Of a DNA stretch of 64,000 nucleotides, positions 16,758 through 54,375 are shown one piece after another. The notes beneath the pieces were generated by a model. That model saw only the letters and a program-made list of their open reading frames with translations, did no database searches and was not told the origin of the DNA. Positions within the stretch are counted from its first letter, which is position 1; every line of letters begins with the position of its first letter. Source of the stretch: a phage; the sequence record PZ154895.1; one strand, given 5' to 3'. The translations under genes were made by a program, and so were the position numbers.

Positions 16758-19898
<3,141 letters not shown>

Positions 19899-48620: not shown

Positions 48621-49109
48621 ATGAATATATTTGAAATGTTACGTATAGATGAAGGTCTTAGACTGACTTTATACAAAGACACTGAAGGCTTTTGGACGAT
48701 TGGCATAGGCCATTTAGTAACAAAGAACCCGTCTTTAGCCGTAGCTAAAGCTGAACTTGACAGAATGATCGGACGTAAATGCAACGGTACAATTACCCTT
48801 GATGAGGCTGAAAAGCTATTTAATGAAGACGTTGATAAAGCCGTTCGCGGAATCTTGGGTAATGCTAAACTTAAACCGGTATATGATTCTTTAGATGCAG
48901 TTCGTCGATGTGCGTTGGTCAATATGGTCTTCCAAATGGGCGTAGCAGGCGTCGCTGGTTTTACTAATTCTCTTCGTATGCTTCAACAGAAACGTTGGGA
49001 CGAAGCGGCAGTAAATCTAGCCCAATCTAAATGGTATCGTCAGACACCTAATCGCGCGAAACGCGTAATCTCAACATTTAAAACAGGAACTTGGAAAGCG
49101 TATATATGA
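48621..49109 (+). CDS. e: endolysin (T4-type lysozyme)
   Basis: 162 aa; [15 protein letters not shown]...[13 protein letters not shown] recognised as T4 lysozyme family, roughly 80 percent identical to T4 E as recalled. Confidence 0.95.
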
Positions 49110-49387
49110 AAACATATAGTGAATTTTTATCAGAATCTATTCTTAACGAAGCTACTGACACATTTGCAACTAAGTTAGGTGCAGCTTTGGTTGAAGCCGA
49201 AAGTCTATTAGCACGTATTTCTGAACTTGCTAGTAAGATAGATACTCGCAAATTTGAACGTACCAGCGATATCGTTAAGCTTGAAGCCTTGTTGCGTATG
49301 TGCGATAAACCAGAAGAAATCGCTAAGAACGGCTCGCTAATGAAACAACGTCTTGAAAAATATATTTCAGGCGCTTCAGAAAAATAG
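49106..49387 (+). CDS. internal-protein-like CTS-bearing protein (IPII-like size)
   Basis: 93 aa from [10 protein letters not shown]|SILNE|A; ATGA overlap with e stop; position between e and denV where T4 has ip genes. Confidence 0.55.
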
Positions 49388-49422
49388 TGTTTACTTCCTC
49401 CAAGGACTTTGATACTATACAT
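49383..49422 (+). promoter_or_regulatory. T4-type early promoter upstream of denV
   Basis: -35 GTTTAC 49389-49394, -10 TGATACTATAC. Confidence 0.7.
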
Positions 49423-49445
49423 TCATCAACTACTTGGAGGAAGTT

Positions 49446-49862
49446 ATGACTCGTATCAATTTAACACTTGTTTCTGAACTGACCGACCAACATCTTATGG
49501 CTGAGTATCGTGAATTGCCGCGTGTTTTTGGTATAGTTCGTAAACATGCGGCAAATGGTAAGCGGGTTAAAGATTTTAAAATATCTTCCGAGTTTATTTT
49601 AGGCTCTGGTCATGTTACGTTCTTTTACGATAAGTTAGAATTTTTGCGAAAGCGCCAATCAGACATTATAACGGAATGCTTAAAACGTGGGTTTAGTATA
49701 AAAGATACTGAAGTTCCTGACATCAGCGATATTCCAGCAGAATGGAAAAACGATTATAATCCATGCAAATCAGCTATTAAATTGAGTCAACAACGACTCG
49801 ATGAAAAAATTTTAATGAAGCCACACTGGTACAAGTATTACGGCAAAAATATTTACATTTAA
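49446..49862 (+). CDS. denV: endonuclease V, pyrimidine-dimer DNA glycosylase
   Basis: 138 aa from [29 protein letters not shown], recognised as T4 EndoV family; GGAGG SD. Confidence 0.92.
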
Positions 49863-49871
49863 AGGAAACAT

Positions 49872-50345
49872 ATGAAAACATATCAAGAATTTATCACTGA
49901 AGCAGCTATTAATTCTCAAATTATTGCTGAATCTTTTACTGATCTTTTGAAATTTAAAAAAGGACAGAAAATTACTGCTGTATTAGATGATGGTACAGAA
50001 GTTGAGATGGATGTACAAGGATATAATTATGCAGTAGATGGAAAACTGTATAATAAATCTCATGCTAAATTTGATTCATTTGACGACTTTGTTAATACAG
50101 TTGAAGATGAAAAAACTCGTAGATCCATTGCAACTGGCGATGCTAAGGTTCTTATGGCACACGGTCATGAACGTATTCGCGCTAAACAGAATAAAATGGG
50201 CGAAGATAATTTCGCATTAGTTGGTTATCAATCTGGTAAGCAAACTTATGGCTATCAGCGTACTGCTACCATGTATAATAAAAATGGTAAAATCGCTTTC
50301 GTGAATAGCAAAGGCTCTATTCAGTACGTCAAATCATTCAAATAA
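49872..50345 (+). CDS. internal-protein-like CTS-bearing protein
   Basis: 157 aa; N-terminus MKTYQEFITE|AAINSQIIAE|S closely matches the canonical T4 IP leader MKTYQEFIAE. Confidence 0.55.
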   Translation: MKTYQEFITEAAINSQIIAESFTDLLKFKKGQKITAVLDDGTEVEMDVQGYNYAVDGKLYNKSHAKFDSFDDFVNTVEDEKTRRSIATGDAKVLMAHGHERIRAKQNKMGEDNFALVGYQSGKQTYGYQRTATMYNKNGKIAFVNSKGSIQYVKSFK

Positions 50346-50498
50346 GCAAATAAGAAATATGGGAACAAGCTGGACCTCATGATTCTATGAGGGATTCCCG
50401 CCAACCTGTAATAAGGTCGAGCCCAAGTGCGGTAATGGGTAAATACAGAAATGGACAATTCATGCGCCATGGAATGGCCCAAATTTAGAGAGAATAAA

Positions 50499-51038
50499 AT
50501 GAGAACATTTTTAACTGGTCCTTATCTATCCCTGATGAATGCTTTTACACACCATTCTGATGCTAGAGTAGAAGAAATTTGTAAAAACGATTATATCCCA
50601 CCATTTGAAGACTTACTTAAGCAGTATTGCACACTTCGTTTAGATGGTGGCAGACAATCCGGTAAATCAACTGCTGTGACTAACTTTGCTGCTAATTGGC
50701 TGTATGATGGTGGAACAGTTATTGTTCTTTCTAATACTTCAGCTTACGCTAAAATTTCTGCGGGCCACATTAAAAAAGAATTTTCTCGTTATTCTGGCGA
50801 TGATATTCGATTCCGCTTATTTACCGATTCTGTCCGTAGTTTTATTGGCAATAAAGGAAGCAAGTTCAGAGGTTTATCGCTTTCTCGAATTTTGTATATA
50901 ATCGATGAGCCTGTTAAATCTCCTGATATGGATAAAATTTACGATATTCATATTGAAACTGTGCAACACTGCTGCAATAGTAAATGCTGTACTGGTGGTA
51001 TTACTCGTCCACAGTTTTTCGTAATCGGAATGCAATGA
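50499..51038 (+). CDS. small P-loop NTPase with C-terminal Cys cluster
   Basis: Walker A DGGRQSGKST, Walker B ILYIIDEP, C-terminal CCNSKCC; start chosen at MRTFL (alternative 50451). Confidence 0.55.
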   Translation: MRTFLTGPYLSLMNAFTHHSDARVEEICKNDYIPPFEDLLKQYCTLRLDGGRQSGKSTAVTNFAANWLYDGGTVIVLSNTSAYAKISAGHIKKEFSRYSGDDIRFRLFTDSVRSFIGNKGSKFRGLSLSRILYIIDEPVKSPDMDKIYDIHIETVQHCCNSKCCTGGITRPQFFVIGMQ

Positions 51039-51364
51039 TGACAGATACGCAACTTTTCGAATATCTTTATTTTTCGCCAAAAACTATTAAAAATAAATTG
51101 GTGAATCATTTTGAAATTTTGGCAAATAACAACGTCTTGAGCGAATTTTATCCTAAGCAATACAAATTACAAAAAGGCGTATTCAAAGGATGCAGAGTTT
51201 TGTGCACTGCTCCTAATGCAAAGTTAATGAATAAAATTCCATATTTTACCATGGAATTTATTGATGGACCTTTTAAAGGACTAATTACCCAAAGTTTAAT
51301 GGCATATGATTCTGAGCCATTTTTAATTAAAGAGCAATCTTGGATAAATTTATTTTCTAATTGA
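51035..51364 (+). CDS. hypothetical protein
   Basis: about 109 aa from MMTDTQLF, overlaps upstream stop. Confidence 0.45.
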   Translation: MMTDTQLFEYLYFSPKTIKNKLVNHFEILANNNVLSEFYPKQYKLQKGVFKGCRVLCTAPNAKLMNKIPYFTMEFIDGPFKGLITQSLMAYDSEPFLIKEQSWINLFSN

Positions 51365-51370
51365 GGTTAT

Positions 51371-51733
51371 ATGAAAGCATATCAAATTCTTGAAGGCACA
51401 CATAAAGGTACTATTTATTTTGAAGACGGTATTCAAGCACGAATTATTGTCTCTAAAACTTTTAAAGAGGACTCTTTTGTAGACCCGGAAATTTTCTACG
51501 GTTTGCATGCCCGTGAAATTGAAATTGAAACACAACCTACAGTTAAAATTGAAGGTGGTCAACACTTGAACGTTAACGTTCTGCGTCGCGAAACTCTGGA
51601 AGATGCAGTTAAGCATCCGGAAAAATATCCGCAGCTGACCATCCGTGTATCAGGTTATGCAGTTCGCTTTAACTCTCTGACTCCGGAACAGCAGCGCGAC
51701 GTTATTGCTCGTACCTTTACTGAGAGTTTGTAA
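51371..51733 (+). CDS. GrcA/YfiD-like autonomous glycyl radical cofactor
   Basis: 120 aa; C-terminal half [55 protein letters not shown] carries the glycyl-radical RVSGY motif, near-identical to enterobacterial GrcA as recalled. Confidence 0.85.
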
Positions 51734-51954
51734 TGGCAAAGATAATTATTGAAGGTTCTAAAGATGTGCTAAATGCTTTCGCCGAATGGTTTAGTAATTC
51801 AGGCGAGCAGCAATTTAATGAAGCGTGGACCATGGGTGATATTGATGGAATTTATCCTACGACAGAAATTTCTGTTCAAGGATATGGCATTCATGAACCT
51901 ATTCGTTTAGTTGAATATGATTTATGTACTGGTGAGGAAGTAAAATATGATTGA
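51733..51954 (+). CDS. hypothetical small protein
   Basis: 73-aa ORF, ATGG overlap with upstream stop. Confidence 0.4.
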   Translation: MAKIIIEGSKDVLNAFAEWFSNSGEQQFNEAWTMGDIDGIYPTTEISVQGYGIHEPIRLVEYDLCTGEEVKYD

Positions 51955-52213
51955 AGATATTAAGGGTTATAAGCCACATACTGAAGAGAAAATCGGTAAA
52001 GTGAATGCTATCAAAGACGCTGAAGTTCGTTTAGGACTTATCTTTGATGCTTTATATGATGAATTCTGGGAAGCACTGGATAATTGTGAAGACTGTGAAT
52101 TCGCAAAGAATTATGCTGAAAGCCTCGATCAGTTAACTATTGCTAAAACTAAACTCAAAGAAGTCAGTATGTGGGCTTGTCGCGCAGTGTTTCAACCAGA
52201 GGAAAAATATTAA
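51947..52213 (+). CDS. hypothetical small acidic helical protein
   Basis: 88-aa ORF; vs.3-vs.8 region of T4. Confidence 0.4.
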
Positions 52214-52491
52214 TGGCTCAATTAAGCGCAGGGTTTGGTTATGAGTATTATACTGCCCCTCGTCGTGTATCTGTTGCTCCTAAGAAAATTCAAAGTCTTG
52301 ATGACTTCCAGGAAGTAGTCCGTAAAGCTTTCCAGGACTATGCACGTTATCTTAAAGAAGATTCACAGGACTGTCTCGAAGAAGATGAAATTGCTTACTA
52401 TGAGCAGCGTCTTGAACAGCTCAAAAACCTACATGAGGTTCGTGCAGAAGTTTCAAAGTCTATGAATAAATTGATTAGATTTAAAGAATAA
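52213..52491 (+). CDS. hypothetical small protein
   Basis: 92 aa from MAQLSAGF with GAGGAA SD. Confidence 0.4.
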
Positions 52492-52525
52492 CTGTTTACT
52501 TTTCCTCTTGACTGTGGTATAATTT
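52488..52525 (+). promoter_or_regulatory. T4-type early promoter upstream of regB
   Basis: -35 GTTTAC 52494-52499, -10 TGGTATAAT. Confidence 0.7.
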
Positions 52526-52550
52526 TTCTATCAGTTAAGAGGAGAATAAC

Positions 52551-53012
52551 ATGACTATCAACACAGAAGTTTTTATCCGTCGAAATAAGCTCCGTCGTCA
52601 CTTTGAGTCGGAGTTTCGTCAAATTAACAATGAGATTCGTGAGGCATCAAAAGCAGCAGGGGTCTCATCGTTTCATCTAAAATATTCTCAGCATCTTCTT
52701 GATCGTGCAATTCAACGGGAGATTGATGAGACATATGTTTTTGAATTATTCCATAAAATAAAAGACCATGTTTTAGAAGTTAATGAATTCCTGAGTATGC
52801 CTCCGCGTCCTGACATTGACGAGGATTTTATTGATGGGGTTGAATATCGTCCTGGGCGTTTAGAAATCACAGATGGAAATCTTTGGCTTGGATTTACAGT
52901 TTGTAAACCTAATGCGAAGTTCAAAGACCCGTCGCTTCAATGCAGGATGGCAATTATTAACAGTCGTCGTTTACCAGGAAAGGCTTCTAAAGCAGTAATT
53001 AAAACTCAATGA
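52551..53012 (+). CDS. regB: RegB site-specific endoribonuclease
   Basis: 153 aa, exactly the T4 RegB size, own early promoter, position between denV and tk. Confidence 0.65.
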   Translation: MTINTEVFIRRNKLRRHFESEFRQINNEIREASKAAGVSSFHLKYSQHLLDRAIQREIDETYVFELFHKIKDHVLEVNEFLSMPPRPDIDEDFIDGVEYRPGRLEITDGNLWLGFTVCKPNAKFKDPSLQCRMAIINSRRLPGKASKAVIKTQ

Positions 53013-53019
53013 GGTAAGC

Positions 53020-53565
53020 ATGAGAAAAGCACTACTCGCTGGTCTATTGGCCATTTCAATGATGGCGCATAGCTCCGAGCATACTTTCAGTAATGTCCAA
53101 CTCGATAACATGCGTTACGCGTATCAATTCGGGGAACAATTTTCTAAGGATGGAAAATATAAAACACACAAAAATATCCACAAGAGCGGATTAGGTCATA
53201 TAATGGCTGCTATTTTATGGCAAGAAAGCTCTGCCGGAGTTAATTTAAAATCTAAACCAAAGCATCATGCCTACGGAATGTTCCAAAATTATTTGCCAAC
53301 TATGCGAGCAAGAGTTAAGGAACTTGGTTATAATATGACTGATGCTGAAATAAAAAGAATGTTGAATAAACGGTCCAATTCAGCTTCCTGGGCGTACATT
53401 GAACTTTCTTATTGGTTAAATATACATAAGGGTGATATAAGAAAAGCTATATCCTCTTATAACTCGGGATGGAATGTTAAAGCTGGTTCTAAATATGCTT
53501 CTGAAGTCCTAGAAAAGGCTAACTACCTTAAAAATAATAAACTTTTGGAAATAGTAAATGACTAA
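53020..53565 (+). CDS. secreted protein with signal peptide, lytic-transglycosylase-like
   Basis: 181 aa; N-terminal signal peptide MRKALLAGLLAISMMAHS; AILWQESSAG resembles a lytic transglycosylase catalytic-Glu motif. Confidence 0.5.
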   Translation: MRKALLAGLLAISMMAHSSEHTFSNVQLDNMRYAYQFGEQFSKDGKYKTHKNIHKSGLGHIMAAILWQESSAGVNLKSKPKHHAYGMFQNYLPTMRARVKELGYNMTDAEIKRMLNKRSNSASWAYIELSYWLNIHKGDIRKAISSYNSGWNVKAGSKYASEVLEKANYLKNNKLLEIVND

Positions 53566-53899
53566 AATTTTGGTTTTATGTATAGGATTAATTTCATTTT
53601 CTGCGTTAGCAAATACATCATATACTGAAATTAGAGAGTATGTAAACCGTACTGCCGCGGATTATTGCGGGAAAAATAAAGCATGCCAAGCTGAATTTGC
53701 GCAGAAATTAATATATGCATATAAAGACGGAGAAAGAGATAAATCAAGCAGATACAAGAACGATACTTTATTAAAACGATATGCTAAAAAGTGGAATACC
53801 TTAGAATGTTCAGTTGCGGAGGAGAAAGATAAAGCCGCCTGTCATTCAATGGTTGACCGTTTGGTAGATTCTTATAATCGAGGATTGAGTACTAGATGA
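53558..53899 (+). CDS. small secreted Cys-containing protein (signal peptide)
   Basis: 113 aa; signal peptide MTKILVLCIGLISFSALA; four Cys. Confidence 0.45.
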   Translation: MTKILVLCIGLISFSALANTSYTEIREYVNRTAADYCGKNKACQAEFAQKLIYAYKDGERDKSSRYKNDTLLKRYAKKWNTLECSVAEEKDKAACHSMVDRLVDSYNRGLSTR

Positions 53900-54375
53900 T
53901 TGTAAAATATATCAAGGGCGATATTGTCGCCCTATTTCTTCAAGGTAATATTATTGCGCACGGGTGCAACTGTTTTCATACTATGGGTTTAGGTGTAGCG
54001 GGTCAATTAGCAAGAGCCTATCCTAAAATTTTAGAAATAGATAAAACCACTACTGAGTACGGTTCTCGTGATAAATTAGGTGATATGTCTATTGTTTTTA
54101 AACATAATCCTGCAGGATTTGGTATATGCTATAACCTGTATACGCAATACGAACCGGGTCCTAATCTTGATTATGGTGCTTTAGTAAACTGCATGATAGA
54201 ATTAAATCTACAGGCAGAAACCCTTTTGTTTAAACCAGTAATTTACATTCCACGCATAGGTTGTGGTATTGCTGGCGGTGATTGGGATAAGGTTTCTAAA
54301 TTAATCGACATGTTTACTCCTGATATTGATTTAATAGTGGTGGATTATGAAAGTACATTACCCGCATCCGTTTGA
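53896..54375 (+). CDS. macro-domain-like protein (ADP-ribose binding/processing)
   Basis: 159 aa; GDIVALFLQGNIIAHGCNCFHTMGLGVAGQLA resembles the macro-domain N-terminal and Gly-rich loop motifs. Confidence 0.5.
   Translation: MIVKYIKGDIVALFLQGNIIAHGCNCFHTMGLGVAGQLARAYPKILEIDKTTTEYGSRDKLGDMSIVFKHNPAGFGICYNLYTQYEPGPNLDYGALVNCMIELNLQAETLLFKPVIYIPRIGCGIAGGDWDKVSKLIDMFTPDIDLIVVDYESTLPASV

Follow-up and report, generated by a model that had tools for sequence, protein, structure and literature searches.

The T4 protein Vs.8 was recently picked up in an AlphaFold 3 screen against the immune sensor EcAvs2, and co-expression of vs.8 with EcAvs2 was found to be toxic (Evans et al., Nat Commun 2026; PMC13601566). 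In that study, Vs.8 was noted as homologous to the terminase ATPase, carrying a Walker A as well as a Walker B motif, and was modelled in the terminase pocket of EcAvs2 with a bridging ATP. Its function was left open, with the suggestion that Vs.8 might serve in anti-defence and that Avs2 came to recognise it (PMC13601566). T4 Vs.8 was thus reported as a further activator alongside Ksap1 and Ksap2, two non-terminase Avs2 activators that are small phage proteins with a terminase-ATPase-like beta-sheet core in the Avs2 sensor pocket; unlike these two, Vs.8 still has both Walker motifs, A and B, and is a true homolog of terminase in sequence (PMC13601566). Each gene from vs.3 to vs.8 has also been assayed against type IV Thoeris, where vs.3 (TadIV-1) alone was active (PMC13243611), and vs.4 is Acb2 according to the literature. 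Here we describe an open reading frame (ORF) at positions 50499-51038 (+ strand) of a 64,000-nucleotide stretch of phage DNA from sequence record PZ154895.1, hereafter the window. This ORF is orthologous to T4 vs.8, an already known accessory gene of that phage.

The window derives from a T4-like (Tequatrovirus) genome, and positions 49800-51400 were matched by 826 phage records in a megablast search, with top identities of 97-98%. The gene order in the window, e.2-nudE-e-ip-denV-Ip4-vs.8-vs.7-vs.6-vs.5-vs.4-vs.3-regB-vs.1-vs-tk.4, is as in phage ime09 and T4, and the order denV ... vs.8 - vs.7 - vs.5/vs.4 ... regB was kept in the window, T4, ime09 and approximately 30 further loci. As in T4, vs.8 lies between denV and vs.7 and belongs to the operon vs.8-vs.3-regB. 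The ORF encodes 179 amino acids (aa) plus a stop codon. T4 Vs.8 (NP_049732) was 93% identical to the window protein across the 179 shared aa, the same 540-nt gene is annotated vs.8 in the RefSeq record of ime09, and residues 3-179 of the 179 matched phrog_1488, the T4 Vs.8 family (function unknown in PHROGs), with an E value of 2.1e-79. By tblastn, Vs.8 was present in 1010 phage records, in 1008 of them near full length, with identities of 36-99%; vs.8 is therefore a real gene and not a chance ORF. When 1.84 billion representative proteins were searched exhaustively with a profile, only 50 clusters were recovered, all of them stand-alone proteins of about 150-185 aa, bar a few fragments or longer gene calls.

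The ORF stops at 51038, and the longest ATG-initiated frame, which opens at 50451, would encode 195 aa. The ATG at 50499 begins 8 nt downstream of an AGAGAG Shine-Dalgarno-like stretch, is the start kept in all homologs, and gives the 179-aa protein with the N-terminus MRTFLTGPYLSLMNAF. Since every homolog opens with M-[RKN]-x-(F)-L-T-x-x-Y-L, 50499 is the true vs.8 start. The Walker A motif, Walker B motif and Cys-rich tail that a first-pass annotation of this DNA had read from the ORF are all present in the 179-aa gene. The same annotation had given the function as unknown, a statement that is now partly outdated: the gene is T4 vs.8 and activates Avs2, as published in 2026.

Vs.8 is a stand-alone ATPase domain of the terminase-type ASCE/RecA-like kind. 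An AlphaFold2 model of the protein, with a mean predicted local distance difference test score (pLDDT) of 79.8 and a predicted template modelling score (pTM) of 0.81, adopted a RecA-like alpha/beta fold. Both signatures of an ASCE P-loop nucleoside triphosphatase (NTPase) were found, a Walker A motif of the form GxxxxGK[ST] and a Walker B motif of the form hhhhD followed by a catalytic Glu. The full-length paralog of this fold in the same phage is the large terminase gp17, a 610-aa ORF at 16761-18593 (- strand). In PHROGs, phrog_2 (terminase large subunit) was the next match after phrog_1488, with an E value of 3.3e-6. Comparison by hhalign of a Vs.8 family profile of 33 members with the phage's own gp17 gave a probability of 89% and an E value of 2.3e-6, aligning Vs.8 residues 32-143 with gp17 residues 142-262 (of 610) and placing the Vs.8 Walker A on SRQLGKT, FRG on VRG and LYIIDEP on MIYIDEC.

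T4 gp17 N-subdomain I (PDB 2o0h; Terminase_6N) shares with Vs.8 the ASCE/RecA-like fold, the RQxGK[ST] P-loop with its cis arginine, the RG motif before Walker B, and the hhhhDE Walker B with its catalytic Glu. Approximately 110 residues align; the N-terminal 140 residues of gp17, its lid (subdomain II) and its nuclease are without counterpart in Vs.8, and vs.8 lies on the opposite strand from gp17, within the vs.8-vs.3 accessory operon. Pfam Terminase_6N scored 14.9 bits on Vs.8, below its cut-off of 22, and neither Terminase_6N nor Terminase_1 reached its Pfam gathering score. Scans of Vs.8 and Vs.7, the product of the adjacent gene, with Pfam, NCBIfam and PADLOC likewise returned nothing above threshold, only weak AAA, terminase and PtuA P-loop matches, and a PDB sequence search with the Vs.8 family profile gave marginal P-loop matches only (E about 0.06). 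Of the resemblances offered in the first-pass annotation, to small signalling or packaging ATPases, the packaging guess was close, the nearest characterised relative being the gp17 ATPase core. Setting aside any guess at its role, we consider it likely that, in identity and biochemical nature, Vs.8 is a stand-alone paralog of gp17 ATPase N-subdomain I, a reading on which profiles, fold and the literature agree.

The motifs of this domain were strongly conserved. The Walker A motif or P-loop, GGRQSGKST (residues 50-58; 50646-50672, + strand), includes the P-loop arginine R52 and K56, and the run D49-G-G-R-Q-S-G-K56 was invariant in an alignment of 18 homologs, down to 42% identity, and likewise in 27 distinct locus-derived Vs.8 sequences, down to 36% identity. 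R113, R124-G125, L132, I134, I135, E137 and P138 were invariant in both sets of sequences. The last five of these lie in the segment that holds Walker B and the catalytic carboxylate, ILYIIDEP (residues 131-138, with D136 and E137; 50889-50912, + strand), where D136 was nearly invariant, being Asp or Glu in Vs.8 homologs. The first-pass annotation had taken the ORF for a small P-loop NTPase too short for a helicase, and the invariance or near-invariance of Walker A and B down to 36-42% identity bears this out; the check that it had proposed, conservation of the motifs in homologs, came out in favour of the P-loop part.

The P-loop arginine is a cis element common to, and typical of, terminases (PMC5727402). 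R52 of Vs.8 was invariant and aligned with the Arg of gp17 SRQLGKT, so that the P-loop is of the terminase type. In P74-26 TerL, R139 is a trans-acting arginine finger, and T4 also has Arg there (PMC5727402). In Vs.8 this position is occupied by R124-G125 (50868-50873, + strand), where the Arg is invariant and sits in a loop that precedes the Walker B strand; the pair aligned with the gp17 stretch vRGnsf. We infer that R124 is equivalent to the terminase trans-finger Arg. Vs.8 ends at residue 179, right after the fifth beta strand, and therefore lacks the lid subdomain and the RNase H-like nuclease domain. Its last strand, FFVIGMQ, with invariant G177 and Q179, sits where the terminase coupling (C) motif would come after Walker B, but was left unaligned by hhalign.

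A superfamily 2 (SF2) helicase was also considered. The RecA1 domains of SF2 helicases (Mfd, RIG-I, DEAD-box) were only 7-21% identical to Vs.8, and no helicase family was among its Pfam matches. This candidate was rejected, as Vs.8 is a single 179-aa domain without a second RecA-like domain or motifs I-VI in tandem; lacking that second domain, Vs.8 alone cannot be a helicase. Separately, in a distant branch of Vs.8-like proteins (P0056, P0058, P0060 and P0065), G-H-[ST] was found to replace G-K-[ST] of Walker A, and the D-E pair of Walker B was lost. This branch may be a non-catalytic offshoot.

Vs.8 comprises one RecA-like/ASCE P-loop domain that keeps R52/K56, D136/E137 and R124, without lid or nuclease. 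Its homology, fold, motif conservation and synteny are shown here, and its activation of EcAvs2 is shown in published work. Since conservation covers the residues for hydrolysis (the catalytic Glu and the trans-finger-position Arg) as well as those for binding, an oligomer of Vs.8 most likely binds ATP and hydrolyses it. Vs.7 is a possible co-subunit, and Vs.8 is probably made from the early/middle-strand operon vs.8-vs.3. Selection on Vs.8 appears to act on hydrolysis in an oligomer, and not merely on terminase likeness. As to its role, we tentatively propose that Vs.8 could be an accessory terminase-ATPase mimic in host takeover or counter-defence. Such a role would explain the placement of vs.8 with Acb2 (vs.4) and TadIV-1 (vs.3), as well as its recognition by a terminase sensor.

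Vs.8 retains two arginines that are needed to complement an adjacent terminase active site, one in the P-loop and one at the trans-finger position, and its paralog gp17 is encoded within the same genome. These features would fit a protein that modulates the packaging motor, co-assembling with gp17 or binding gp16, and that delays, regulates or poisons packaging, either that of its own phage at an early stage of infection or that of competitors infecting the same cell. We regard this as quite improbable, since vs.8 is accessory and found only in some Straboviridae and all tailed phages package DNA without it (PMC13601566). In addition, vs.8 is located in the vs.8-vs.3 operon with accessory and anti-defence genes, away from the head and packaging genes.

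The Cys-rich loop HCCNSKCCTGG (residues 157-167; 50967-50999, + strand) was, in contrast to the P-loop, lineage-specific and variable. Within the last 30 residues of Vs.8, proteins of >=88% identity had four to six Cys, those of 62-66% identity had three, and those of 36-45% identity had between zero and two, so that the proposed conservation check failed for the Cys cluster. Both the length and the sequence of the loop varied among Vs.8 homologs, and AlphaFold2 pLDDT was <50 for residues 158-168. Four ligand residues constant in number and spacing among homologs, as in a Cys metal-binding module (zinc knuckle, zinc ribbon or Fe-S), were not found. The sole Pfam match to the loop was a conotoxin, below threshold, which reflects Cys spacing only. 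In some Tequatrovirus relatives (L026, L045 and L046) the loop was expanded to HCCCNIKCC and HCCCCNIKCC. This expansion looks like a slippage-like gain of Cys codons in a TGC/TGT run.

The first-pass annotation had suggested that the Cys-rich tail could bind metal. A conserved metal site is not supported, because the Cys cluster is not conserved in homologs and lies in a low-confidence loop of varying length. In its fuller form, this proposal would make Vs.8 a signalling or packaging NTPase whose CCNSKCC cluster binds Zn or an Fe-S metal essential for function, and the four Cys of CCxxxCC are indeed kept, and have even grown to five or six, among Tequatrovirus-level relatives. However, homologs below about 60% identity have no cluster yet carry all of the ATPase motifs, the loop is predicted to be disordered as well as varying in length, and the sub-threshold conotoxin match is all that Pfam offers for it. 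Adjacent Cys pairs are, moreover, poor tetrahedral ligand sets. We therefore hold an essential metal cluster to be very unlikely. In the Tequatrovirus lineage, CCNSKCC is a surface loop that evolves fast; it is no metal site that would define the family, and the cluster need not be pursued further as a lead to function.

The gene following vs.8 is vs.7 (51035-51364, + strand; 109 aa), which overlaps vs.8 by ATGA, so that the two are coupled in translation, and belongs to PHROG 2049, of unknown function. In most T4-like loci reaching past the end of vs.8, the two genes abut or overlap, even at 35-47% Vs.7 identity, and this arrangement suggests that Vs.7 is a stoichiometric partner of Vs.8. An AlphaFold2 model of Vs.7 was uninformative (pLDDT 44, from a shallow alignment). 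Further downstream, positions 51371-54375 hold an accessory/anti-defence cluster of vs.6, vs.4, vs.3, regB, vs.1, vs and tk.4. Within this cluster, vs.6 encodes a GrcA-like glycyl-radical protein (Pfam Gly_radical), and tk.4 is annotated as a "phosphatase", for which the T4 record mentions an A1pp motif. Several related genera are without vs.6 and vs.3, yet have vs.8-vs.7.

Many deposited genomes name vs.8 or vs.7 "endoribonuclease" or "RegB domain-containing" and, once, "large terminase subunit". Only these database names speak for the possibility that Vs.8 is a RegB-like endoribonuclease or a fragment of a true large terminase, a possibility that we consider negligible. BLASTP comparison of Vs.8 with the RegB encoded 1.5 kb downstream in the window gave a best E value of 4.1, by which RegB identity was refuted at the sequence level. 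A genuine 610-aa terminase is present elsewhere in the window, and Vs.8 is without a nuclease domain. Given the lack of similarity to RegB, the endoribonuclease and RegB names on vs.8 and vs.7 look like propagated annotation errors.

The first-pass annotation had placed the ORF directly after the gene at 49872, but a 153-nt non-coding spacer with a structured RNA intervenes. The gene in question, Ip4 (49872-50345, + strand), which had been described as a "CTS gene", encodes an internal virion protein with an N-terminal capsid-targeting sequence; it matched Pfam DUF7412 (E 6e-96) and PHROG 3155 (internal virion protein) and is annotated Ip4 in ime09. Ip4 is a variable insert: in T4 it is absent between denV and the upstream RNA, whereas in the window phage it is inserted there. 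The spacer between Ip4 and vs.8 was GC-rich and almost identical in the window phage, ime09 and T4.

This spacer contains an unannotated, covariation-supported and pseudoknotted RNA upstream of vs.8 (50359-50480, + strand), for which a structure model was built by comparing 35 distinct sequences. Helix P1 (50361-65/50395-99) has 5 bp and occurs in about twelve different complementary versions, with an internal, variable hairpin H1 at 50375-80/50387-92. The model further contains helix P2 (50400-03/50436-39), of about 4 bp, hairpin H2 (50404-07/50414-17; ACCUGUAAUAAGGU) and the near-invariant strand CGAGCCnnAGUGCGGUAA (50418-35). A candidate pseudoknot (50370-72/50446-48) pairs the 5' part of the P1 interior with a segment just 3' of P2, and a T4-type conserved segment is found at the 3' end (50464-80). 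The near-invariant core of the RNA is ACCUGUAAUAAGGUCGAGCCnnAGUGCGGUAA.

In a MAFFT alignment of 24 sequences, 90.3% of cells were paired and the covariation score was 0.445, compared with 0.155 for shuffled alignments, and 0 of 500 shuffles scored as high. All five pairs of P1 changed on both sides, with slid controls reaching <=0.24. When 42 sequences were aligned by covariance model, the score was 0.531 as compared with 0.167. For the pseudoknot, 0 of 1000 position-constrained re-pairings reached the observed score, and an unconstrained "longest duplex" test gave no discrimination; in T4-type sequences, the window among them, the pseudoknot comprises just 3 bp and does not reach significance by itself. 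The minimum free energy of the spacer alone was not significant (z = -0.45), and the evidence for structure therefore rests on covariation. With the covariance model, the window yielded a single copy, scored at 95.9 bits over 50359-50458, and T4 yielded one copy, the latter overlapping the 5' end of the annotated vs.8 coding sequence (CDS).

A diverged second tandem copy of the RNA was observed between the first copy and vs.8 in three T4-like loci (L022, 9102-9194; L052, 444-536; L094, 5078-5169). Its core, GGUCAGCCCGCGGCGGUAA, changes GC/GC to GU/AC, and a mini-hairpin of 2-3 bp inside the "invariant" strand is suggested. Base pairing would be possible between the 3' segment at 50464-80 and the invariant strand; as a speculation, this would resemble the expression platform of a regulatory RNA.

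Comparison with known RNA classes gave no match. Rfam 15 returned none at E values up to 1 across positions 49000-52000 of the window, and none at the element in three other loci. ARAGORN found no tRNA or transfer-messenger RNA (tmRNA) at the position of the RNA, and these two candidates were rejected. A promoter scan revealed nothing convincing upstream of the RNA or of vs.8. With the hepatitis delta virus (HDV)-like and theta ribozymes, the RNA shares the order of strands: P1, pseudoknot strand, hairpin, P1', closed domain, pseudoknot strand'. Theta ribozymes are associated with phage tRNA arrays, as is the upstream RNA. However, the domain that carries its conserved nucleotides corresponds to the dispensable P4 of HDV-like ribozymes, its J4/2-equivalent linker is 0-8 nt long and has no conserved C, and no Rfam HDV-family match was obtained. 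With the conserved positions in the wrong places, an HDV-like ribozyme was rejected. A literature search by gene name and core sequence found no description of the RNA; the viral RNA catalogue of 2023, with about 10,000 candidates (PMC10690425), was not compared motif by motif.

The spacer was found by blastn in 1117 phage records, and, counted by host genus, the spacer and Vs.8 were nearly equal in number for Klebsiella, Enterobacter, Yersinia, Salmonella and Shigella. In T4-like loci, the RNA core was always 61-178 nt upstream of the vs.8 start. A 44-nt RNA core was also detected in unrelated phages, namely Vequintavirus (rV5-like), the Pseudomonas Flaumdravirus KIL4, Vibrio phages of about 138 kb and coliphages of about 45 kb. 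At 10 of 19 such non-T4 loci, the RNA was located inside a cluster of tRNA genes or next to one, in every case in the same orientation as the tRNAs. The few-kb flanks fetched for the 19 loci contained no Vs.8 or Vs.7 homolog. When bacterial genomes and metagenomes were scanned with the RNA core, only phage-like contigs were recovered, plus a few chance matches in GC-rich coding sequence. Two "Campylobacter phage" records, A13b and D1 (MG065677.1 and MG065646.1; 137-141 kb), carried the RNA core in the version seen in 137-kb Escherichia rV5-like phages, and their identity to the query and coverage of it were equal to those of these phages; the host labels of these two records may be wrong.

The position of the RNA next to vs.8 bears on another explanation, in which Vs.8 is a nucleic-acid-dependent ATPase that works with Vs.7 and possibly the upstream RNA, as a small ribonucleoprotein or an RNA/DNA-remodelling module, and its terminase likeness is only ancestral. 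We consider this unlikely. A lone RecA-like domain is unable to translocate, and no RNA-binding domain was detectable by Pfam and other family scans. Further, the RNA does not need Vs.8, as it was found outside T4-like phages with no Vs.8 or Vs.7 homolog in the flanks.

The RNA also bears on the T4 reference annotation. The T4 RefSeq vs.8 CDS (NC_000866, 6254-6913, - strand) encodes 219 aa and is equivalent to positions 50379-51038 of the window, and its extra 40 N-terminal codons run through the conserved RNA element. In this stretch T4 and the window differ by an 8-nt indel, and the T4 frame meets a stop codon in the window sequence. Because the indel and the stop codon break the frame, the stretch covered by the 40 extra T4 codons is not coding. 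The real T4 vs.8 start is probably the methionine of MRTFLTG, giving 179 aa, with the reference start wrong by 40 codons. Cloning "vs.8" from the annotation would thus also clone the RNA and translate through it.

A broader proposal is that, in T4-like phages, the RNA works together with Vs.8 and Vs.7 as a single functional unit. The RNA could then serve as a sensor or operator controlling a host-detectable terminase-like ATPase, or as a stable RNA assembling with Vs.8 and Vs.7. Independently of Vs.8, the RNA would represent a new non-coding RNA class of phages, because it also occurs in Vequintavirinae, Flaumdravirus, Vibrio phages and coliphages of about 45 kb, in which it travels with tRNA arrays. 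We offer this combined proposal as speculation and regard it as rather unlikely. The upstream RNA itself is a by-product of the analysis with real evidence for structure, apart from the ORF finding.

For the ORF, little changes, as its terminase-like nature and its recognition by Avs2 were already published in 2026. New here are the translational coupling with vs.7, the upstream RNA, the association of this RNA with tRNA clusters, and the T4 vs.8 annotation running into the RNA. Worth following are vs.7 with its coupling, the start codon as corrected, and the conserved upstream RNA, and the RNA, which is widespread in virulent phages and backed by covariation, merits a study of its own. For Vs.8, the conserved hydrolysis residues, together with R124, argue for an oligomerising enzyme over a passive mimic. 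Viewing Vs.8 as such an enzyme sharpens the question of why phages keep a protein that is visible to a host sensor.
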